A DNA stretch of 61,698 bases, the filler included, from an uncultured Myxococcia bacterium (GTDB lineage: Bacteria; CAZTWC01): NCBI GenBank assembly GCA_964617105.1. It is 9 parts of 9 records of this genome, joined end to end, with 100 filler letters (N's around TTAATTAATTAA, not from the genome) between each part and the next. Parts side by side here need not be neighbours in the genome. Positions count along the whole stretch, not along the records: positions 7,024 to 13,918 come from CAZTWC010000208.1; 8 more parts are not named here. One strand, 5' to 3'. The position numbers were made by a program, and so were the translations under genes. The notes under the pieces were generated by a model. That model worked only from the letters and a program-made list of their open reading frames with translations. It was not told where the DNA came from and ran no database searches. Shown here in pieces: positions 5,295-55,176 of the stretch; the stretch's first letter is position 1, and each line of letters begins with the position of its first letter.

Positions 5295-5562
5295 CTATTT
5301 CCTCACATACCTGGCATTTATCACCCACAAAAATCAAAATATATAAATTAATAAAAAATTTCCAATACAATTTACCAATTACATAGTTAGGAATAGTAAA
5401 AGTAATCTGTTCGCCCATAGGAGATTTAATGCTGGTTATTCCCAAATAGTAAAGCAAAGTAACAAAATCGTTGGGGCTAAACTCTTGTAATTGATCCTGG
5501 CTTAACAGGTTTAAAGCGGTTGGAGTCAAGGTAATTTGTCCATTTTTAAGTAACTCTTCCAT
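5287..5562 (-). pseudogene. Internal fragment of an AAA-ATPase-like (PF09820-type) / PD-(D/E)XK-fusion family gene
   Basis: NDFVTLLYYLGITSIK...FTIPNYVIGKLYWKFF resembles the conserved DFxSLLxYxGxLTI...IPNYVIxxLYW block of that family; no P-loop; only 91 aa. Confidence 0.6.
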
Positions 5563-6923: not shown

Positions 6924-7023
6924 NNNNNNNNNNNNNNNNNNNNNNNNNNNNNNNNNNNNNNNNNNNNTTAATTAATTAANNNNNNNNNNNNNNNNNNNNN
7001 NNNNNNNNNNNNNNNNNNNNNNN
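6924..7023. other. Artificial contig linker
   Basis: 44 N + TTAATTAATTAA + 44 N. Confidence 0.98.
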
Positions 7024-7308
7024 GCAAGCTAAAGCAAAATCGGCATTTTCCGAAAGAAATCCAAAACCCGGATGAATCGCCTGGCAAGAGTAACTGTGGG
7101 CTGTTTCGAGAATAGCATCCATATTCAGGTAACTTTCTCCACTCTGAGCCGGGCCTATGCATACTTTGAAATCGGCAGCATCCAAATGGGGTGAAGTTTT
7201 ATCAGCCTCGGCGTAAATAGCCACAGTTTCGATTTCCAATTCCTTACTGGCCATGATAATTCGCAGTGCAATCTCGCCCCGGTTAGCAACCAGCAATCGC
7301 TTAAACAT
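7024..7308 (-). CDS. accC: Biotin carboxylase N-terminus (truncated by contig end)
   Basis: [17 protein letters not shown]...ESYLN...[16 protein letters not shown]. Confidence 0.88.
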
Positions 7309-7313
7309 TTATA

Positions 7314-9863
7314 TCACTCCTTATTGGCATACTCTAAAATAGCACTCTTTAGCGTGGCCTTTTTTATGGGTTTAGTCAAGTGACCTGAGCACCCAACATC
7401 AATACTCTTTTGGATCTCTTCCTTAAGGGCATAGGCAGTCAAAGCCAATACTGGAGTTACCGGTCTATTCTGCTGATTTTCCAGTTCTCTTATCTTTCTG
7501 GTGGCGGTGTAACCGTCCATGACCGGCATCTGCATATCCATAAAGATTAAATGGTAACGTTTGCTGATAAATTTATCTACCGCGATTTTTCCATTTTCAG
7601 CAATATCGATCCTATGATTAGTTTTCTTTAAAAAGGCCTTTATCAGCAAACGATTATCCTCTAAATCCTCTACCAGCAGGATATCAAAACCCACTTTGGA
7701 GCCCTTTGACTCTGAACGGTCCACCTTAATTTCTTTTTTGACCTTTTTTCTGGTTTTTCCAAACAGCGATTCCAAGGCTTCTTTAATCTTATTGAGGGTA
7801 ACAGGTTTAACCAGCAGGGCCTTTATGCCATCCTCCATGGCCCGTTGAAAATCACCCCTCCGATAGTTGGAGGGCAACATCATTATTGTTTTGGCAACCA
7901 ATTCGGGCGCAAGTTCCTTCAAACTGGCCAACAGTTGGAATCCATCCATACCTGGCATACGACTGTCAAGATAGATCAAATCAATGGGATACTTTTGCTT
8001 TCCTCCTAAAGTAGATTTAATTTCATCCAGGGCCAACGCCCCATTTCCAACACACTTTACATTACCCCCCAAACCGACTAGATTATTCTTTAGTATCTCC
8101 TGGACAGTTGAGTTATCGTCTATCACCAGCGTTCTTAATCCAGTCAAGTCCCGTCCAATAGTCTGAATTCGTTCCGCTTTTTTATGGTCCAGGGTAAAAA
8201 CCGCTGTAAAACAGAAAAGGCTCCCCTGATCTTGGTTGTTTTCACACCAAATCTTTCCTCGCATCAAATCCACCAATTTTTTGCAAATAGCCAGTCCCAA
8301 TCCGGTGCCGCCATATTCCCGGGTAATGGAAAAATCCACCTGGGTAAAACTTTTAAAAATGGCCTTCAACTTCTCTTCAGGAATACCAATACCGGTATCC
8401 CTGACTGAAAATAGGAACTCTATTGTTTCCCCTACCAGGTTGGTTCTCTCTACACTTTCCACCCGCACCACCACCTCCCCCTCTTCGGTAAACTTGATGG
8501 CATTACCTATCAGGTTGGTAAGAATCTGCCGTAACCGGCCACTGTCACCTATTAAATTGACTGGTATCTCAGGAGAAATTATGTGGGCTAACTCTAATCC
8601 TTTGGCATAGGATTTAACTGACAGCATATCACATATTTTTTCCACTTCTCCAGATAAGTCCATCTCCCTCTCATCTAACAGCAGTTGCCCGGCTTCGATT
8701 CTGGAAAAATCGAGGATATCATCGATTATAGCCAGCAGATTACCGCCCGCCGAGCGAAAAGTGTCCAGATATTTTTGCTGTTCAGCATCCATAACGGTTT
8801 CATTCAGCAATTCCGCCATGCCCAAAATAGCATTCATGGGAGTACGGATCTCGTGACTCATGTTGGCCAGAAATGCGCTCTTGGCCTGGTTGGCTGCCTC
8901 TGCCTCCAGCATAGCCTGCCGCAGTTCGGCATCGGTACGTTTTAGTTGGTTGTAGGTTTTCTCCAATTTATTATAAGTCTTGACCAATTCTTCAGATTTC
9001 TGTTTTTCCATCTCGGCTGTGGCCTTTAGCACCGCCATTTCTCTTTCCTGCTCCGCCTCCTTCTTACGGCGGGTGATATCGCGAATAATTCCCACAATAT
9101 TCCATTTGCCCTTCAACTTTACCGTGGAGAGGGCAATCTCCGCCGCCACCCGGGAACCGTCTTTTCTTTCTAACCATAACTCTTCCGCCCGGTCAGCTAC
9201 AACACCACTCCATTTTTTTCTCAACTTGTGTAAAAGTCTTGGCTCAAAGGATATAAATTCTGGTAAAGGAATAACTGCATAAATATCCTTACCCAGCATT
9301 TCTTGAGATTTGTAGAGAAATAACCTTTCGGTGGCCTGATTCCAAAAAATAACTCTACCTTTTTCATCCACCATAAAAATAGAATCGTGAGCCAAATCGC
9401 TGATAGTCTGAAATTTGTTTTCACTCTCTATCATAGATATTTCAGCTCTTTTTCTAGCCGTAATATCATGGAGCATAACCACACTGTTAAACCTCTTACT
9501 GTCATCCTCTTTTCTCACTTCAATGGGGGATATCATCAAAGAGGCCCAAAACACCTCACCCCCATTTTTGATAAAACGGGTTTCGGTTTTGATAAAAGAG
9601 ATCTGGCCCTTTTTTAATTCTTCCACCTGCTTGGAATCGTAGTTGACATCATGAAGATGGGTTATCTTGGGTAGGGTAATTTTTAGCAGTTCATCTTCGG
9701 AATAGCCCAGTATCAGGCAAAGGCTCTGGTTGACTTGCAAAAGACGCCGATCTTCATCCTCTATTGCCATACCAATGTAACTATGGTTGAAGAGAGTATC
9801 GAACAACCGCTTATTTTCGACTAATTGATACTTTAAATCTTTTATTAATTTATCTTGATCCAT
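7314..9863 (-). CDS. Cytoplasmic PAS-PAS hybrid histidine kinase with two receiver domains
   Basis: H-box FLANMSHEIRTPMNAILG; NLIGNAIKFT; DTGIGI; GGTGLGLAI; receivers YLDSRMPGMDG and FMDMQMPVMDG; two PAS/PAC segments ending DITxRK. Confidence 0.95.
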   Translation of the reverse strand: MDQDKLIKDLKYQLVENKRLFDTLFNHSYIGMAIEDEDRRLLQVNQSLCLILGYSEDELLKITLPKITHLHDVNYDSKQVEELKKGQISFIKTETRFIKNGGEVFWASLMISPIEVRKEDDSKRFNSVVMLHDITARKRAEISMIESENKFQTISDLAHDSIFMVDEKGRVIFWNQATERLFLYKSQEMLGKDIYAVIPLPEFISFEPRLLHKLRKKWSGVVADRAEELWLERKDGSRVAAEIALSTVKLKGKWNIVGIIRDITRRKKEAEQEREMAVLKATAEMEKQKSEELVKTYNKLEKTYNQLKRTDAELRQAMLEAEAANQAKSAFLANMSHEIRTPMNAILGMAELLNETVMDAEQQKYLDTFRSAGGNLLAIIDDILDFSRIEAGQLLLDEREMDLSGEVEKICDMLSVKSYAKGLELAHIISPEIPVNLIGDSGRLRQILTNLIGNAIKFTEEGEVVVRVESVERTNLVGETIEFLFSVRDTGIGIPEEKLKAIFKSFTQVDFSITREYGGTGLGLAICKKLVDLMRGKIWCENNQDQGSLFCFTAVFTLDHKKAERIQTIGRDLTGLRTLVIDDNSTVQEILKNNLVGLGGNVKCVGNGALALDEIKSTLGGKQKYPIDLIYLDSRMPGMDGFQLLASLKELAPELVAKTIMMLPSNYRRGDFQRAMEDGIKALLVKPVTLNKIKEALESLFGKTRKKVKKEIKVDRSESKGSKVGFDILLVEDLEDNRLLIKAFLKKTNHRIDIAENGKIAVDKFISKRYHLIFMDMQMPVMDGYTATRKIRELENQQNRPVTPVLALTAYALKEEIQKSIDVGCSGHLTKPIKKATLKSAILEYANKE

Positions 9864-9965
9864 AGTGCTATTTTCTTTGCTGAAACAAATAAATTGTTGA
9901 TTATTAAAACTATAAATTTTACAATAATTTTACTCGAATAGAAAGCTTATAGTTCAGTATATATT

Positions 9966-10095
9966 GTGTCCGTCCGGAAATCAACTTTGTTGCAAAAATT
10001 CGGAGACATCTTCAAAGGCGGCGTCAGCAGACCGACTCCCCCTGGCAGGGGGAGATGCCCTTGGGCAGAGGGAGTAAAGAGTTTCGGACGGACAC
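9966..10095. mobile_element. 130-bp MITE/REP-like element
   Basis: Terminal IR GTGTCCGTCCG / CGGACGGACAC (11 bp perfect); internal hairpins CTCCCCCT-GGC-AGGGGGAG and TGCCC-TT-GGGCA; GC-rich within AT-rich intergenic DNA. Confidence 0.6.
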
Positions 10096-10117
10096 TTACA
10101 AAAGTCAGGACAAAGTA

Positions 10118-11371
10118 ATGAAAAAGGGAAGAAATCTGTTTGTTCCACAGCGGATCAACTATTTTCTCCCTGATTGGGACGATCTGGTAGATCCTGGCTT
10201 TGACTTTATCGGGGAGATATCGTCCCCGGGACGGCGCAACAACCAGGATGATTACTATGCTCACGAAATTTTTCCCTGTCCGCCGTACGATGGCATCTTA
10301 ATCTCTCGAGCAGTTACCGAGAAAAAGAAAATAAAAGGCCAGCTTATGCGGAAAAAAGGAGTACATGCCTTTTTGAGACTCCCCAAAAAAATTCCGGTCA
10401 TGGGCGACTGCGGCGCTTTTGAATATATCGATTTGCCCAATCCGCCTTACAGTGTAGAAAATGTTCATCAATACTACTGTTCAATTGGTGTGGATATAGG
10501 GGTCAGCGTTGATCACCTGATTGTCAAAGGTAAGGAGGAGGAGAAAAAGCATCGGTTTGAGATAACTCTGCAAAACGCGGCGCATTTTTTTCGCCTCTGC
10601 CAGAGAGACACCCCTTTTATTCCTCTGGGGGCTGCCCAGGGCTGGGATCCATCCTCATACGCCAGAGCGGTTACAGAGTTGCAAAAAATGGGGTACCGCC
10701 GTATCGGTCTGGGTGGTTTGGTTCGCACTTCCAGTCGGGATATTATCGAGATCCTAAGCCAGGTCAACTTGATTCGCCGGCCTGATGTCCGCCTCCACCT
10801 TTTTGGCATAGCCCGTCCGGAACATATTCACACCTATTGGAAACTGGGAGTATCCAGTGTAGACTCCGCCTCTTTTCTGCGGCAGGCCTGGCTAAGTCTG
10901 GATAAAAACTATTTTACTGGCAACGGTAAATTCTATACCGCTTTACGAGTGCCCCAGGCCCTTCGCAAACCAGTGCAGGAAAAAGCGAATAAATTAAACA
11001 TTAGCCAGGATAAATTGCTGGAGCGGGAGCAGACCCTACTAAAAAATCTACGTAGTTTTGACCAGGAACCAAAAAACTTTGAAGCCCTGGCTGATGAGAT
11101 TATTGAATACAATCGAATGACCGGCAATACCAGGGTTAAACAAAAAGCCGTAGTGCGCACCCTGCGCAGTCAACCCTGGAAAAAATGCTCCTGCCCGATT
11201 TGTCAACAATTGGGGATTGAGGTGATCATTTTTCGGGGAAACAACCGCAACCGGCGACGCGGCTTTCACAATACCAGGGTTTTTTACCAACAATTGAAAG
11301 AAAAGTTTAAAAAAAAAGCGGCTAAGCCTGCTGAGCCAACCATTAATCAAGCCTGTCTACCGGGTCTGTAA
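10118..11371 (+). CDS. dpdA: DNA 7-deazaguanine transglycosylase DpdA (TGT paralogue)
   Basis: YFLPDWDDLVDPGFDF, DDYYAHEIF..PYDGILIS, MGDCGAF, SVDHLI, QGW, LGGLV, HLFGIARP, SVDSAS, PWKKCSCPIC...IFRGNNRNRRRGFHN (Zn site). Motif order and 417-aa length match bacterial DpdA as I recall it; AGGA RBS before ATG 10118. Confidence 0.88.
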   Translation: MKKGRNLFVPQRINYFLPDWDDLVDPGFDFIGEISSPGRRNNQDDYYAHEIFPCPPYDGILISRAVTEKKKIKGQLMRKKGVHAFLRLPKKIPVMGDCGAFEYIDLPNPPYSVENVHQYYCSIGVDIGVSVDHLIVKGKEEEKKHRFEITLQNAAHFFRLCQRDTPFIPLGAAQGWDPSSYARAVTELQKMGYRRIGLGGLVRTSSRDIIEILSQVNLIRRPDVRLHLFGIARPEHIHTYWKLGVSSVDSASFLRQAWLSLDKNYFTGNGKFYTALRVPQALRKPVQEKANKLNISQDKLLEREQTLLKNLRSFDQEPKNFEALADEIIEYNRMTGNTRVKQKAVVRTLRSQPWKKCSCPICQQLGIEVIIFRGNNRNRRRGFHNTRVFYQQLKEKFKKKAAKPAEPTINQACLPGL

Positions 11372-11421: not shown

Positions 11422-11832
11422 ATGAAAATAACCTGGAAAAAATTTATCCCGCTCACAGTCCATAAAATCTACGCAGCCATGGGACTTTCTCTGGTGGTTT
11501 TGGCTACCCTGCAGCCAGGGCAATTGCAACTGCTCTCTTGCCCCCTGTTACGCAATTTACACCTACCCTGCCCCAGTTGTGGCATGACCCGCAGTTTCAC
11601 TGCCTTTGCCCGGCTGGATATTGCTATTGCCTTTCATTATAATCCCCTGGGCGCCCTCCTGTTTTTGCTGATCCTTTTCTTGGCCCTTTACGTGTTGGTA
11701 CTGGCTCCGCTGCTCCCCAAAATGCCGCATCTGCACTTAAGTCACAAAGAAAATAAATCGCTCCCCTGGATTGGGGCTTTAATACTAATCTCCAACTGGT
11801 TATATCTAATATCAATCCGCGGGGAGTTATAA
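11422..11832 (+). CDS. DUF2752-family membrane protein
   Basis: CPL...LPCPSCGMTRSF...AFHYNPLG motif; TM helices. Confidence 0.85.
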   Translation: MKITWKKFIPLTVHKIYAAMGLSLVVLATLQPGQLQLLSCPLLRNLHLPCPSCGMTRSFTAFARLDIAIAFHYNPLGALLFLLILFLALYVLVLAPLLPKMPHLHLSHKENKSLPWIGALILISNWLYLISIRGEL

Positions 11833-11970: not shown

Positions 11971-12046
11971 TGGTGAGCCGTGAAGGATTCGAACCTTCGA
12001 CCCACAGATTAAAAGTCTGTTGCTCTACCACCTGAGCTAACGGCCC
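11971..12046 (-). tRNA. tRNA-Lys (UUU)
   Basis: GGGCCGTTAGCTCAGGTGGTAGAGCAACAGACTTTTAATCTGTGGGTCGAAGGTTCGAATCCTTCACGGCTCACCA: cloverleaf, anticodon loop CTTTTAA, encoded CCA. Confidence 0.97.
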
Positions 12047-12080: not shown

Positions 12081-12109
12081 ACCATAGACCAAATAAGGAT
12101 GCTTGTCAA
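12081..12109 (-). promoter_or_regulatory. sigma70-type promoter for tRNA-Lys
   Basis: TTGACA-17 bp-TATGGT on the minus strand, about 35 nt upstream of the tRNA. Confidence 0.6.
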
Positions 12110-12116
12110 GATTTGT

Positions 12117-13466
12117 ATGCAAAAAATATCCCTTCAGCGTAACAAAAATAAGCCTTTTCCGGCAGGAGGTTTCAGAGAACTGCTTACCCTGGCGTATCCG
12201 GTAATGATCTCTATGCTGTCCCAATCCTTTATGGGGACAGTGGATACTTTTTTAATGGGATGGGTTGGAACTCCAGAACAGGGTGCGGTAGGACTTGGTT
12301 CCACTATCACCTGGTCCACTATCTGTATGGTCTATGGCACCTTGACAGTAATCACCACTTTTGTTTCACAGCGATTGGGGGCCAAAAACTATGAACAATG
12401 CGGCAATTACGCCTGGCAGGGATTTTACTTTGGCATAACCTATTTTATGTTTCTTTTGTTGCTTATTATCCCCAATTTGAATTCGCTGCTGGCAATAATC
12501 GGCCCGGACCCTGGTCTGGTTGATCTTACCAGCCGGTATATGGAAATTCGACTCCAGGGCAGTCTATTTGTGTTTACTAATTTCTGTGTCATAAGTTTTT
12601 TCAGAGGCATCGGCAATACTAAAACCCCAATGAAAATCACCCTGTTTATCAACCTGATAAATATAGTTCTTAGTTATATNNNNNNNNNNCCTTTAGGATT
12701 AATGGGAGCAGCGGTGGGTTCAGTGATGTCCACTGCGATTGGCAGCGCCATTTATCTCTCTATTTTTTTGGGCGCCCATTATCGAAAAAAATACCATACC
12801 GATAAAATATCGCTAGACTTGAACAAAACAATCTCCTTTTTGAAGATCGGTATTCCGGTTGGTATCAGTTGGCTGATGGAAATGATTATATGGGCGGCTT
12901 TTGCCGGCATGGTAGCCAAATTGGGAGCCAAACAGTTGGCTGCCCACAATATTGTTATGCAACTAGTTCAACTCTCCTTTTTACCCGGGGTGGCTATCTC
13001 GGTAGCCAACTCAACCCTGGTAGGTCAGTATATCGGCGCTAAAAAACCAAAGATCGCGGTAAAGTGTGGTTATACAGCCACCAAAACTGGTGTTGCCTAT
13101 ATGGCCTGTATGGGGATAACCTTTCTATTACTCCGGGAGCAGTTGCCCTTTGTATTTAACCGGGATCCTGAGGTAATTGCCATCAGCAGCCAAATCATTC
13201 TCTTTGCCGCCGGCTTTCAGGTATTCGACGCTCTTTTTGTCACTTCTATAGGTGTTTTGCGAGGAGCCGGGGACACTCGCTGGTGCATGGTAGTGACTAT
13301 TCTCCTCAGTTGGCTGTTTTTCCTGCCCCTTTTATATCTGCTGACTTTTTATTTTAACTTTGGCATAAGCGGCGCCTGGTGCGCGGCCTTAATCTACATA
13401 ACAGTGCTGGGATTGACCATGTTTGCCCGGTTTTACGGCGGCAAATGGCAGAAAATTAAGATTTGA
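12117..13466 (+). CDS. MATE family efflux transporter (10-N gap at 12680-12689; start 12117 or 12099)
   Basis: LAYPVMISM...VDTFLMG, FRGIGNTKTPM, LRGAGDT; about 12 TM helices. Confidence 0.92.
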   Translation: MQKISLQRNKNKPFPAGGFRELLTLAYPVMISMLSQSFMGTVDTFLMGWVGTPEQGAVGLGSTITWSTICMVYGTLTVITTFVSQRLGAKNYEQCGNYAWQGFYFGITYFMFLLLLIIPNLNSLLAIIGPDPGLVDLTSRYMEIRLQGSLFVFTNFCVISFFRGIGNTKTPMKITLFINLINIVLSYXXXXPLGLMGAAVGSVMSTAIGSAIYLSIFLGAHYRKKYHTDKISLDLNKTISFLKIGIPVGISWLMEMIIWAAFAGMVAKLGAKQLAAHNIVMQLVQLSFLPGVAISVANSTLVGQYIGAKKPKIAVKCGYTATKTGVAYMACMGITFLLLREQLPFVFNRDPEVIAISSQIILFAAGFQVFDALFVTSIGVLRGAGDTRWCMVVTILLSWLFFLPLLYLLTFYFNFGISGAWCAALIYITVLGLTMFARFYGGKWQKIKI

Positions 13467-13918: not shown

Positions 13919-14018
13919 NNNNNNNNNNNNNNNNNNNNNNNNNNNNNNNNNNNNNNNNNNNNTTAATTAATTAANNNNNNNNNNNNNNNNNNNNNNNNNN
14001 NNNNNNNNNNNNNNNNNN
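13919..14018. other. Artificial contig linker
   Basis: N44-TTAATTAATTAA-N44. Confidence 0.98.
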
Positions 14019-20903: not shown

Positions 20904-21003
20904 NNNNNNNNNNNNNNNNNNNNNNNNNNNNNNNNNNNNNNNNNNNNTTAATTAATTAANNNNNNNNNNNNNNNNNNNNNNNNNNNNNNNNNNNNNNNNN
21001 NNN
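20904..21003. other. Artificial contig linker
   Basis: N44-TTAATTAATTAA-N44. Confidence 0.98.
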
Positions 21004-21198: not shown

Positions 21199-24100
21199 CT
21201 ACATATTCCGACGATACCACCCGCCTACTCTATAGAGGACGCCGGTTAACTGGCCCAGAGAGCAATATTTGGCTGCTTCCAGGATAACCTCGAACAGGTT
21301 GCCTCCGGTCTGGGCTGTGCGGGTTACCTCTGCCAAAGAGGCTTCTGCCTGTTGAAGGTTAAATCTCTGAAAAGCACGCAAATTATCTATCTGCTGATCT
21401 TTTTCTTCCTGAGTGGAGCGGATAAGTTCCATGGGTTCACACTCTTGATCCTCCAGATGCTGAGGGCGCAAAAAGGTATTGACTCCAATTATCGGGTACT
21501 GTCCCGAGTGCTTCAACTCTTCGTAATAGAGGCTCTCCTCCTGGATTTTTCCCCGCTGGTACATGGTCTCCATAGCCCCCAATACCCCGCCCCGCCTGGA
21601 TATGCTTTTAAATTCGGTTAGGATGGCTTCCTCCACCAGGTCGGTCAACTCATCAATCATAAAAGAACCCTGCAGAGGATTTTCATTTTTTGCCAATCCG
21701 TATTCCCGATTGATAATCAGTTGAATGGCCATGGCCCGCCGCACCGATTCCTCGGTCGGGGTGGTGACAGCTTCGTCATAGGCGTTGGTGTGCAGAGAGT
21801 TACAATTATCATAAATGGCGTAAAGGGCCTGCAAAGTGGTTCTGATGTCGTTGAAATCGATCTCCTGCATATGAAGGCTGCGGCCGCTGGTTTGAATGTG
21901 ATATTTGAGTTTCTGACTCCGCCCATTACCTTTATAATAATATCTCATGGCTACCGACCATATACGTCTGGCCACCCGGCCGATTACTGCATATTCAGGA
22001 TCAATTCCATTGGAGAAAAAGAAACTCAGGTTGGGGGCAAAAGAATCTATAGGCATCCCTCTGGAGAGGTAGTACTCCATATAAGTGAAGCCGTTGGCCA
22101 GGGTCAAGGCTGCCTGGGTAATAGGGTTGGCGCCCGCCTCGGCGATATGGTAACCTGAGATACTAACCGAATAGTAGTTGCGCACCTGTTGCTGGATAAA
22201 ATATTGCTGGATATCTCCCATCATCCGCAGGGCGAACTCAGAAGAAAATATACAGGTATTTTGGGCCTGGTCCTCTTTGAGGATGTCTGCCTGCACTGTA
22301 CCTCTTACTACTTGAAGAGTTTTCTCCTTGATCTGGTTATATCTCTCCTGGTCAATCAACTGATCGGAACAGACCCCTAAAGTTCCAAGGCCAAAAGCCC
22401 TCTCTTCCCGGGGCTCTATATTACCCCGGTATGTGGGAGGAATCATCTCTTTTTGGCGAAAAAGATCAATTATTTTCTCTCTGGCCTGCTCCCATTTACC
22501 CTCCTGGCGTAAAACTTTCTCCACCTGCTGGTCTATGGCAGTGTTGAGAAAAAAGGCCAACATAATCGGGGCTGGCCCGTTGATGGTCATAGAGACCGAG
22601 GTGGCTGGATGGCAAAGATCAAAACCACAATACAACTTTTTAGCATCGTCCAGGGTGCAGACACTTACCCCGGAATTGCCGATTTTTCCGTAAATATCGG
22701 GCCGCTGGTGAGGGTCCTCCCCGTAAAGAGTTACCGAATCAAAGGCGGTTGATAACCTTTTGGCCGGTAATCCGCGGCTCAAATAATGAAAACGCTGGTT
22801 GGTTCTTTCCGGTGTTCCCTCACCGGCAAACATGCGGGTGGGGTCCTCGTTGAGCCGTTTGAAAGGAAATACTCCAGCAGTATAAGGAAACGCTCCAGGC
22901 ACATTTTCCAGCAGCATCCACTTCAGCCGCTCGCCCCAATCCTGGAAGGAAGGCATCGACACTCTGGGAATACGGGTTCCGGAGAGAGAAGTGGAGGATA
23001 GATGGTTGACAATCTCCTTGTCCCGGATGCGGGTGACCATCTTATCCTGGCTGTAGGCCTTTTTGGCATCTTCCCACTTTTCTAAAAGTTCCCGGCATTG
23101 CGGTTCTAGACGGTTGAGATAAAAATCTCTTTCCGCAGTCAAAATATCTAGCATTTGGGGGGGCACTTCCCGTTTCCGTATCTCCACCGAGCCTTCCCCC
23201 ACCTGATCACCGGCGCCAATGTGCAACTCCTGGCGGCTCGATGCTTCGGTCAAAGCATCGATACTCCCCTGAATTTGAAATGCCCGCCGTGCATAGTGCT
23301 CCTGCTTTTCCACCCTTTGCCGGTATTTAAAGGCATTGTCGGCTATGCGGGTTAAGTATTGCTGCCTCTCTGGCGGAATAATTGCATTTTTTCCCGGTTC
23401 CTCTCTCTCCACAGCCAAAGGATTAATCCAGGTTAGTCCGGTTTTTTCTCCCACTTTAGCGAACAGGTGGTAGAAAAAGTAGTTGACGCCCGGATCGTTA
23501 AATTGACTGGCAATAGTGGGGAAAACCGGCAAATCTTCGGCCTGGACTTCAAACAATTGGTGATTGCGCTGATACTGCTTGCGCACATCCCGCAGAGCAT
23601 CCTGTGCACCCTGTTTTTCAAATTTGTTGAGCACAATCATATCAGCCAAATCCAGCATATCGATTTTTTCCAACTGGGTTGAGGCCCCATAATCTGAAGT
23701 CATCACATAGAGGGAAAAATCCACCAAATCGACAATTTCGGTGTCTGACTGGCCAATTCCAGCAGTTTCCACCAAAATCAAGTCAAAACCAGCCGCTTTT
23801 AAGATTAAGATACCATCCTGCAGCGCCCTGGAAGTGGCGCTGTTGGTCCTCCTGGTGGCCAGGCTACGCATATAAACTCTGGTATTACCCTCAGCCTCGG
23901 AGGTGGCAACTGCATTCATCCGAATTCTGTCCCCTAACAGCGCGCCGCCAGTACGCCGCCGCGATGGATCAACCGAAAGGATACCCAATTTTTTATCGGG
24001 AAACTGGGCCAAAAAACGCCGCACCAACTCATCTGTTAATGATGATTTACCCGCACCGCCAGTGCCGGTAATACCAACCACCGGAATAATTGCCGAGTTC

Positions 24101-24738
24101 TCCCGGGCTGCGGCGAATATCTTTGGTAATTGATTAGAAGCATCCTCTGTCTCTGGCCGGGCAGTTGTTTGGCTTTCCCGCCCTTCGGTAGTAAAGTCTT
24201 CCGCCGCCTCTTCAGCCAGGGTGATGGCCCGGGCGATCTCCTTAACCCCCCCTTTTTTGATAGCCGGCAATAGTTGCCGCCCTTGGCTGGTCATACTGTA
24301 GTCACACTCTTTGAGCATGTAGTCGATCATCCCCTGCAGACCCATTTTACGGCCATCTTCTGGAGAAAAAATACGGTTGATCCCTGCCTGGTGCAACTGC
24401 TCCATTTCTTCCGGCACGATTACGCCGCCGCCACCGCCAAATATTTTAATCCAGGGCGCGCCTCGCTTTTGCAACAAATCGTAGATATACTGAAAAAATT
24501 CCAGATGACCACCCTGATAGCAGGTGACCGCTATCGCATGGGCATCCTCCTGGATGGCGGTATCCACGATCTCTGCCGCTGAGCGGTTGTGCCCCAGATG
24601 GATCACTTCAGCCCCCGATGACTGGATAATTCGGCGCATTATATTTATGGTGGCGTCATGGCCGTCAAACAGAGAAGTGGCGGTGACAAATCGTATCTTA
24701 TTTTTCGGTTTGTATTGGTTCGGTTCTTTTTGACTCAT
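21199..24738 (-). CDS. icmF: Fused isobutyryl-CoA mutase / MeaB-like GTPase IcmF
   Basis: N-terminal B12 domain SLFDGHDA; GTPase [28 protein letters not shown]; mutase domain [23 protein letters not shown]; ends YRRNM. Start MSQKEP preferred. Confidence 0.95.
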
Positions 24739-24912
24739 TGTTCTCTTCTGCCTCTTTCTTCTTAATCCTGAATAATAGAAAGAAGTTTGGCACAAGGTCA
24801 ACATATCGTCAACCATTGATTGATTTTTGCTCCCTGAAGACTTTTTATCACTCCTGCATTTGTCAATATTACCTATTTATGATAAAAATATAATTTTGGA
24901 CCAATAGAAAGG

Positions 24913-50415: not shown

Positions 50416-51687
50416 TCAGTCAAGCAGCCAATCTAGAACATTGATAGTCTCAATCCAATCCGGGATTTGAATATTCAATGATTTATCTTCCACAATAATT
50501 AAGCATTGAGCCTTGGGAACAATTTTTTTGGCACTCTCAAGACCTTTAATCTCCCTTTTTAGATTTGCTTTAGAAAGTTTTTGAGTTACTTGGATGGCTT
50601 TTACTTTTAATGGATAAAAAGCAAGAAAATCACATTCCCATCGATTTTTCGAAAAGAAAATATCCTCTGTTTCTCTACGCAGATGGTTGAAAATCATATT
50701 TTCCAATAGTTTTCCTCTGTCTTGGTTGGAAATAAACTGGTTAGCCGAGATTAAACCATTGTCAAACAAATAAACTTTTTTATTGCTCATCTCTCTTCTG
50801 GTAACAGATGGGTCATATTTTTCAACATTGGCCAGCAAATAAACCGAAAAAATTTGTTCAACGGTTTTGTATAAATTATCTTTACTGGTTGATATCCCTC
50901 GAGATTTTAAATCATTATAAAGTTTATTGATGGAGAATTCTTTAGTGAAAGAGCCAATCAGACGTTTAATAAAATATTTTACCTGGGATAAATCGTTTAT
51001 TTTGTAGCGTTCAACCAGATCCCTGTAAAGCATTACTTGAAAATACTCTTGTAATATCTTAACTTTATATCGCGGTTCAACTTTAACCAATTCCGGATAT
51101 CCACCCCATTCCAGATAACAATTATAATGTTTTTTTATTAAACTACTATTCTTTAGTGAAAATCTGTCTTCTACGCTAATATTACCGAAATTCAAGTATT
51201 CTTCAAAAGAGAGAGGCATAATTTCAAATGATATGCTACGCCCCCGTAGAGATGTTGCTATCTCTTTTGATAGCATCTTGGCATTTGAGCCAGTAAGAAA
51301 TATTTTTTTGCTGATGTTGTCGTAAATTCTACGGATAAACTTTTCCCAATTACTCAATTCCTGTATCTCATCAAAGAAAAAATAAACATCATTTAAATTT
51401 TGTTCTGGATACAGTTGGAGATAGGCTTCTAGAATACTGTCATAATTATTGGTAAAATTCAGGCGTTCATCTTCAAAATTGATATAGACAATCTTGTCTT
51501 TTAAAACTCCATTCTGCAGCAAAGTTGAAATCAATTGATAGAGACAATAAGTTTTTCCAGCCCTTCTTGGGCCGATCACAGTAATGACTTTTTCCAAATT
51601 TATGGGTATATCAACTTGCCTTTTTATTACCTTGGGCAAATCATTATTGTGAAAGTCTTTTATTATTCTTTTTAAAGATTCATTCAT
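50416..51687 (-). CDS. AAA_14 / DUF4143 ATP-binding protein
   Basis: GPRRAGKT, YINFEDER, FFDEIQ, TGSNA, GGYPE, KVYLFDNG, LLEN, WECDF...IQV. Confidence 0.92.
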   Translation of the reverse strand: MNESLKRIIKDFHNNDLPKVIKRQVDIPINLEKVITVIGPRRAGKTYCLYQLISTLLQNGVLKDKIVYINFEDERLNFTNNYDSILEAYLQLYPEQNLNDVYFFFDEIQELSNWEKFIRRIYDNISKKIFLTGSNAKMLSKEIATSLRGRSISFEIMPLSFEEYLNFGNISVEDRFSLKNSSLIKKHYNCYLEWGGYPELVKVEPRYKVKILQEYFQVMLYRDLVERYKINDLSQVKYFIKRLIGSFTKEFSINKLYNDLKSRGISTSKDNLYKTVEQIFSVYLLANVEKYDPSVTRREMSNKKVYLFDNGLISANQFISNQDRGKLLENMIFNHLRRETEDIFFSKNRWECDFLAFYPLKVKAIQVTQKLSKANLKREIKGLESAKKIVPKAQCLIIVEDKSLNIQIPDWIETINVLDWLLD

Positions 51688-51703
51688 CCCAAAGACCAAT
51701 CGC

Positions 51704-55058: not shown

Positions 55059-55176
55059 TTCTGGTGATTTTAGCAAAAGGGAAACACCCGATCCCATTTC
55101 GAACTCGGAAGTTAAGCCCTATAGCGCCGATGGTACTGCATGGGTAGCTGTGTGGGAGAGTAGGTCATTGCCAGGA
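55059..55176 (+). rRNA. rrf: 5S rRNA
   Basis: CTGGTG...ACACCCGATCCCATTTCGAACTCGGAAGTTAAGC...GCCGATGGTACTG...GGGAGAGTAGG...GCCAGG; terminal helix pairs. Confidence 0.96.

Follow-up and report, generated by a model that had tools for sequence, protein, structure and literature searches.

The gene analysed here, dpdA, encodes a DpdA-family DNA-guanine transglycosylase of 417 amino acids (aa) and stands by itself among housekeeping genes in a 61.7-kb stretch of DNA from an uncultured Myxococcia bacterium (GenBank assembly GCA_964617105.1; nine parts of nine records joined end to end, 61,698 nt, hereafter the window). It is the only DpdA-family open reading frame (ORF) in the window, and no partner gene of the Dpd systems was found within window positions 10 kb upstream and 50 kb downstream of it. 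DpdA exchanges guanine in DNA for a 7-deazaguanine base, and such bases in cellular DNA have so far been explained solely as self-labels of Dpd restriction–modification islands. The open frame spans positions 10055–11371 of the plus strand, and we place the start at the ATG at 10118, which is compatible with the homologues and has an AGGA 7 nt upstream; the ATG at 10055 was rejected as a start, as it falls within a leader hairpin and homologues begin near residue 12. Pfam and ARAGORN returned the flanks that an initial annotation, made from the sequence alone, had described: a hybrid kinase on one side and a DUF2752 gene, a tRNA-Lys and a MATE transporter on the other (Table 1).

Table 1. Features at and around dpdA; positions count along the window.
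Feature	Position	Strand	Description
dpdA coding sequence (417 aa + stop)	10118..11371	+	DpdA-family DNA-guanine transglycosylase
Hybrid PAS / histidine kinase / receiver gene	7314-9863	-	Pfam HisKA, HATPase_c, Response_reg, PAS; divergent from dpdA, left flank
Promoter-like site TTGATT-17-TACAAT	9897..9925	+	9/12 consensus matches, pattern match only; divergent intergenic region upstream of dpdA
Structured element in the dpdA 5′ leader	9966..10095	+	17-nt inverted-repeat arms 9966-9982 / 10079-10095 close a branched fold
DUF2752 small membrane protein gene	11422..11832	+	Pfam PF10825, E 3.9e-16; 50 nt 3′ of dpdA
tRNA-Lys(UUU)	11971..12046	-	ARAGORN; Rfam tRNA 72.4 bits; convergent; own terminator-like hairpin 11961-11937
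MATE transporter gene	12099-13466	+	Right flank of dpdA

Assignment of the protein to DpdA is supported by profile searches and by its predicted structure. It scores 451.6 bits against the NCBIfam DpdA equivalog NF041059 (cut-off 200; residues 13–395 against profile positions 1–405 of 406) and 427 bits against the PADLOC DpdA model PDLC02807, and it matches the DpdA of Salmonella Montevideo (PDB 7UI4) over residues 12–395 with an E value of 2.4e-85. An AlphaFold model computed from a 24-sequence alignment is confident (pLDDT 86.9, pTM 0.85), and its top Foldseek match is again 7UI4 (TM 0.82/0.83 over 409 aligned columns, with 37% identity in the structural alignment), so that the model combines the TIM barrel of the tRNA-guanine transglycosylases (TGTs) with the large insertion specific to DpdA, both superposable on 7UI4. 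The tRNA TGTs (arcTGT, TIGR00432; bacterial TGT, TIGR00449/PF01702) share the TIM-barrel superfamily and the catalytic Asp with the window DpdA, but the tRNA-TGT models stay below their cut-offs on this protein (arcTGT TIGR00432, 46.5 against 350 bits; tgt_general TIGR00449, 25.5 against 47.6 bits), and the predicted structure reaches a TM of 0.42–0.54 to tRNA TGTs. Among the PHROG families, which are general phage families and not dedicated DpdA1–4 models, the sole match was phrog_887 at 21.7 bits, and one of 50,697 phage records resembled the protein, at 33.5% identity. The window protein is a cellular-type bacterial DpdA, neither a tRNA TGT nor a phage-type DpdA; PMC10516641 defines these groups as bDpdA and DpdA1–4. 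The initial annotation was thus right in describing a full-length DpdA-type protein, and the grouping with tRNA TGTs that it had named in advance as speaking against its view was not seen.

The motifs named in that annotation lie at residues 96–101 (GDCGAF), 131–133 (VDH) and 248–250 (VDS). Residue roles were taken from PMC10164549 and transferred through an alignment of the window DpdA with 7UI4. All three catalytic aspartates of S. Montevideo DpdA are present, Asp95, Asp130 and Asp256 corresponding to Asp97, Asp132 and Asp249; PMC10164549 describes Asp95 as the general acid/base and Asp256 as the nucleophile. The base-stacking Phe99 is Phe101 in the window DpdA, and the Zn site C357-x-C359-x2-C362...H384 corresponds, with equal spacing, to Cys368/Cys370/Cys373/His395 of 7UI4. 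A GGLVRT segment matches the 'GGhsbb' pattern, which PMC10164549 assigns to pockets of the type that holds 7-cyano-7-deazaguanine (preQ0). Like the window protein in family, fold, aspartates, phenylalanine and Zn site, the Salmonella enzyme differs in having GGMVP in place of GGLVR, His181 in place of Gln174, and Phe265, which is proposed to occupy the space that the flipped base vacates, in place of Trp258.

Gln174 bears on the possibility that the DpdA fold has been retargeted, either to RNA (tRNA or rRNA) or to the insertion of another base. Glutamine is the TGT residue at that position, the DpdA family descends from tRNA transglycosylases, and no DNA-processing context surrounds the gene. 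We nevertheless consider retargeting very improbable: the same glutamine is found in 79 of 80 reference DpdAs (the set described below), the DpdA-specific large insertion and a basic IIFRGNNRNRRRGFHN segment are invariant across 23 aligned relatives, the tRNA-TGT models fall far short of their cut-offs, and the C-terminal domains of arcTGT are absent (417 aa compared with 582 for 1IQ8).

Next, the window was searched for partner genes. A Pfam scan of its 45 ORFs detected no ParB/DndB, DUF6884/DUF328, QueC/D/E or FolE domain. We also built 21 custom hidden Markov models (HMMs) of families that recur beside DpdA in the reference loci and ran them on all six-frame window ORFs of at least 40 aa. 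The set covered DpdB, three DpdC-like kinds, DpdD, DpdE, DpdF, a DpdH-like family, DpdJ, QueC, QueD, QueE, FolE2 and YhhQ, together with UvrD-like, PD-(D/E)XK, HerA-like, Hel308-like and three unnamed families. At E ≤ 1 a single window ORF was matched, argininosuccinate synthase by QueC at E 0.0043 and 11 bits; in our reading this reflects the PP-loop fold common to both. Neither dpdB (the DGQHR ParB-like ATPase, NF041060), sought by six-frame search and by Pfam, nor a dpdC-type gene (DUF6884/DUF328-like) adjacent or fused to dpdA, sought with the three DpdC-type HMMs, was found in the window; likewise, no restriction genes or helicase–nuclease module came to light, the DpdD, E, F, H-like, J, UvrD-like, PD-(D/E)XK, HerA-like and Hel308-like models all lacking a match there. 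PADLOC reported DpdA and one unrelated ATPase of the candidate defence family PDC-S01. Together, these results bear out, for the window, the claim of the initial annotation that neither flank carries dpd or preQ0 genes.

The PDC-S01 protein is an AAA_14/DUF4143 ATPase (50416–51699, minus strand; 342 bits) encoded 39 kb from dpdA and without a link to Dpd. Its gene was probably acquired, because it has the lowest GC content (0.32) and the lowest GC content at third codon positions (GC3; 0.31) of the window genes. Pairs of 44-N masks recur about every 6.9 kb (6924–7023, 13919–14018, 20904–21003 and onward), and a run of 10 N lies inside the MATE gene (12680–12689). The masks clip some ORF ends, for example that of a biotin carboxylase fragment (6976–7308), and the short ones are too small for a hidden gene.

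How unusual a lone dpdA is was judged from its relatives. Scanning one genome per species with an alignment as query yielded 547 DpdA relatives. The top 80 by similarity were retained, each with flanks of up to 10 kb, and so represent the closest relatives and not a random sample. A scan with the single protein had returned 91 pattern matches, none of them a relative, and the alignment query was used instead. The partner HMMs described above, now run at E ≤ 1e-5, gave the counts, and family names follow NCBIfam and Pfam scans of representative members; since the HMMs were built from these loci, the counts are partly by construction, which does not apply to the window search. At least one partner family lay within 10 kb in all 80 reference loci, leaving none (0/80) without a partner. 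DUF6884, as a DpdC-like gene or as a fused domain, was present in 76 of them, QueD in 31, QueE in 29, QueC in 26 and DpdB in 14. DUF6884, which PMC12235509 equates with DpdC, is therefore the near-universal companion of DpdA among these nearest loci, and DpdB is not. The premise of the initial annotation that bacterial DpdA works with DpdB was too narrow in this light, and its view of the solitary locus as atypical stands. At the level of the locus, the orphan status of the window dpdA is real and atypical.

These counts can be set beside published surveys. According to a review (PMC5699537), 92% of dpdA genomes have dpdB, 88% have dpdC and 90% have dpdD. PMC12235509, whose mining demanded both dpdA and dpdB, reports some islands that lack restriction genes and some that lack dpdC; because DpdB occurs in 14 and DUF6884 in 76 of our 80 loci, mining of this kind misses most of the diversity. 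TGT-containing HerA systems without DpdB or DpdC are described in PMC12839542. In our Myxococcota sample DpdA was found in 5 of 401 genomes, with DpdB adjacent in four of the five.

Three architectures recurred in the reference loci. The first is the canonical DpdC–DpdB–DpdA arrangement, with or without DpdD/E/F/J. The second is an island without DpdB (L001, L003, L004, L007–L010, L025 and L027), in which a DpdC–DpdA fusion of about 685 aa precedes a 405-aa gene without a name, a HerA-like ATPase, a second unnamed gene of 604 aa, a UvrD-like helicase and a PD-(D/E)XK nuclease; QueC/QueE/FolE2 often lie upstream, and examples come from Planctomycetota, Verrucomicrobiota, Acidobacteriota, Proteobacteria and Firmicutes. 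The third (L005, L022, L034, L036, L038, L042, L046, L055, L062 and L073) contains a second DpdA paralogue of about 300 aa, roughly 27% identical to the window DpdA, with an unnamed 257-aa gene, a DpdH-like gene and a DpdC–DpdA fusion. In Nannocystis pusilla (L058, C2:2988209–2989218) the DpdB beside DpdA is split by an in-frame TAA into frames of 113 aa and 392 aa and may be broken. Two archaeal metagenome-assembled genomes (MAGs; L024 and L075) have DpdA with a DpdC-like neighbour, but neither DpdB nor a QueC that passes the cut-off (best E 5e-8 and 2e-7), which points to incomplete MAGs or to salvage of preQ0.

To which class the window DpdA belongs was read from a tree and from discriminating positions. 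In a quick IQ-TREE phylogeny of 87 rows, supported by the Shimodaira–Hasegawa-like approximate likelihood ratio test (SH-aLRT) only, it comes out as a possible sister to 13 DpdB-associated DpdAs (SH-aLRT 85). Nine alignment positions separate these 13 from the other 67, and the window DpdA has the 'other' state at all nine (canonical at 0/9); Salmonella DpdA is canonical at the seven that were read (window residues 20, 21, 153, 201, 203, 251 and 258), as in PDSQD compared with PDWDD in the window protein, or in the GGMVP and Phe265 already mentioned. This 9/9 state means that the gene did not stray from within the canonical dpdABC clade. Its nearest sequence relatives (43–50% identity) come from the DpdB-less DpdC(DUF6884)–DpdA islands, which share with it the signature residues and the absence of DpdB. 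They differ in that their DpdA is fused or adjacent to DUF6884 and is accompanied by QueC/D/E/FolE2, UvrD-like and PD-(D/E)XK, HerA-like or DpdH-like genes, or by a second small DpdA paralogue, none of which the window has. In the genomes of DpdB-less DpdA loci, a DpdB match was found genome-wide in 0 of 5, with the positive control detected in 5 of 5 (four above cut-off), and QueC was above cut-off in 3 of 5. Given the locus counts and the non-canonical state at all nine positions, the most notable missing partner is the DpdC-like protein and not DpdB.

One alternative is that the missing partners lie elsewhere, the window DpdA being the functional modification half of a split system whose DpdC-like DUF6884 protein, helicase–nuclease module and preQ0 genes are encoded in other parts of the genome. 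The pairing of DpdA with a DpdC-like protein in 76 of 80 loci, and with some partner in all 80, makes a partnerless DpdA unexpected. Moreover, preQ0 genes are mostly unlinked, as shown by the 26 loci with QueC nearby, and in 4 of 4 genomes lacking DUF6884 at the locus a DUF6884 match was found on another contig, although these matches are marginal (30–35 bits) and the control was positive in 4 of 14 well-known genomes. The absence of partners was, besides, established at the scale of the window. Against this, linkage is the rule of the family, so that the 80 loci offer no more precedent for a split than for a lone gene; the 50 kb downstream and 10 kb upstream in window positions hold only housekeeping genes; and the host-like composition of dpdA (below) suggests an old, settled gene and not part of a mobile island. 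We regard a split system as rather unlikely, and as the main rival to the reading favoured below.

The protein itself shows strong conservation. Among the columns that are at least 95% conserved in the 80 reference DpdA domains, 70 of 71 are kept, F125V being the sole change, and 105 of 110 are kept among those at least 80% conserved; this retention is at or above the family median and is consistent with purifying selection on the core. In composition dpdA resembles its surroundings, with a GC3 of 0.498 (window mean 0.454 ± 0.068) and a codon-usage distance of 0.133 (0.138 ± 0.030; 38 window ORFs compared for both). Between positions 5500 and 13000 no att-like direct repeat of the tRNA-Lys 3′ end was found (best 15 nt at 80%, chance level), and an integration scar at that tRNA was rejected on this ground. 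The gene thus looks old and settled, neither recently acquired nor drifting. Its sequence is identical in contigs of all four sequencing runs examined (two studies), an identity that gives no measure of selection, and shows 0 variant letters across these runs at a depth of 0–5.5, with zero depth in some bins of two runs. The contig stretch was found in eight marine or seawater DNA runs of two studies. Lon protease of the host is at most 70–71% identical to anything, and its named matches are Myxococcales and Deltaproteobacteria MAGs; on these data the host is a deep lineage, an uncultured marine Myxococcota-like bacterium.

These observations also bear on whether the gene is a relic, all that remains of a dpd island lost to decay, inactive or drifting, which is the outcome that the initial annotation had asked to be checked. 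Its terminal branch is long, at 1.27 substitutions per column compared with a median of 0.3, the closest relative among 5.8 billion proteins is only 47–50% identical, and the window contains no partners, all of which would fit decay. The intact frame, the 70 of 71 near-invariant columns, the retention of every catalytic residue and Zn ligand, the confident DpdA fold of the model and the host-like codon usage speak against it, as does the identical sequence in the four runs, within the limit just given. No sign of decay was found, and we judge a relic improbable.

We now come to the reading we favour, to which we assign a probability of roughly 40%: that the gene encodes a functional, DpdB-independent (non-canonical) DpdA, a lone writer of 2′-deoxy-preQ0 (dPreQ0) that would have resided in the chromosome for long, apart from dpd islands of any kind. 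Judged from its S. Montevideo homologue, the reaction would be a double-displacement base exchange on DNA. Asp249 would attack C1′ of the target deoxyguanosine to yield a covalent intermediate of enzyme and DNA, with Asp97 as the general acid/base, and preQ0, supplied by the cell's own queuosine pathway or by salvage, would then displace the enzyme and leave dPreQ0 in the DNA. Because no DpdC-like amidohydrolase adjoins the gene, the mark would be expected to stay dPreQ0 and not to be converted to dADG (2′-deoxy-7-amido-7-deazaguanosine). Because no helicase–nuclease module is linked to it, the mark may be a lone 'orphan' modification, epigenetic or protective, and not the self-label of a linked restriction system. 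DNA as the substrate, preQ0 as the incoming base, independence of DpdB and absence of partners from the whole genome are the points that we infer. There is a precedent for activity of a DpdA by itself: dpdA of phage 9g, expressed alone in Escherichia coli, put dPreQ0 into plasmid DNA (PMC6884629).

Several points weigh against a lone, DpdB-independent writer. The phage 9g enzyme belongs to a DpdA subfamily other than that of the window, and the sole biochemically characterised bacterial DpdA requires DpdB and ATP (PMC10164549). With a linked partner in all 80 nearest loci, a truly lone bDpdA is without precedent in the set. The absence of partners covers the window, and other parts of the genome may carry genes for DpdC-like or restriction proteins, or even for DpdB. 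The long terminal branch counts here as well, and the placement of the protein is unsure: its grouping with the DpdB-less myxobacterial (Kofleriaceae/Haliangium) DpdAs is not rejected (approximately unbiased test, p-AU 0.103), and for that reason no donor clade can be named. A broader form of the favoured reading, in which the bacterium would write dPreQ0 into its own DNA with DpdB, DpdC and restriction partners absent from the whole genome, the mark being epigenetic or passively protective against restriction and possibly under control of the leader, is one that we put forward tentatively, as a possibility.

The window dpdA can be compared with other modification genes that lack partners. Phage genomes with dpdA only are known (DpdA1/DpdA2; PMC6884629, PMC10516641); like the window they have neither DpdB nor preQ0 genes, and the phages rely on preQ0 of the host. 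They differ in that the window protein is not of phage type and its gene lies among the housekeeping genes of a cellular chromosome. The S. Montevideo Dpd system differs in its gene context, the window being without dpdB, dpdC and dpdD–K beside dpdA. Our searches of the literature yielded no account of a lone DpdA of cellular type amid housekeeping genes; supplementary tables, which may list dpdA-only genomes, lay outside that search.

Dam and CcrM are orphan DNA methyltransferases, kept without a cognate restriction partner. The likeness to them is one of logic only, as the predicted chemistry in the window would be base exchange and not methyl transfer, and the folds are unrelated. If the broader form of the favoured reading holds, the lone writer would stand to 7-deazaguanines as an orphan methyltransferase stands to methylation. 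An intact, conserved dpdA that stands alone would offer a natural test of whether the widespread DpdB-less cellular DpdAs can act alone, and of whether 7-deazaguanines have roles outside restriction, as methylation has through orphan methyltransferases.

The 5′ leader of dpdA is strongly structured over 130 nt. The inverted-repeat arms of the structured element are 88% complementary, with a closing stem of 14–17 bp, and the fold of positions 9950–10125 has a predicted energy of −59.7 kcal/mol (z −4.13; 0 of 200 shuffles as stable). A known riboswitch or other known RNA was rejected, as the leader had no Rfam match at the gathering score or at E ≤ 10, and the arm motif had no further copy in the window beyond chance. 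The element could be a regulatory RNA or the relic of a small repeat element. On the other side of the gene, no terminator-like site was found on the plus strand between dpdA and the DUF2752 gene, and the two may be co-transcribed. The DUF2752 gene is probably unrelated to dpdA; the family does not recur beside DpdA in any of the 80 reference loci.

Finally, the Pfam scan of the 45 ORFs describes the window as a whole as housekeeping in character, with a Tad pilus cluster, FtsK, ClpP/ClpX/Lon, RuvX, MltG, ArgG/ArgH, PolA and PBP1. A 5S rRNA gene (55060–55176, plus strand; 98.4 bits) lies directly 3′ of an N mask, and neither 16S nor 23S rRNA turned up in the window. At 21199–24816 on the minus strand, a B12-binding domain is fused to a MeaB GTPase and a methylmalonyl-CoA-mutase domain in a protein of 1205 aa; it has the appearance of a routine metabolic protein, with what we take to be an IcmF-like architecture.

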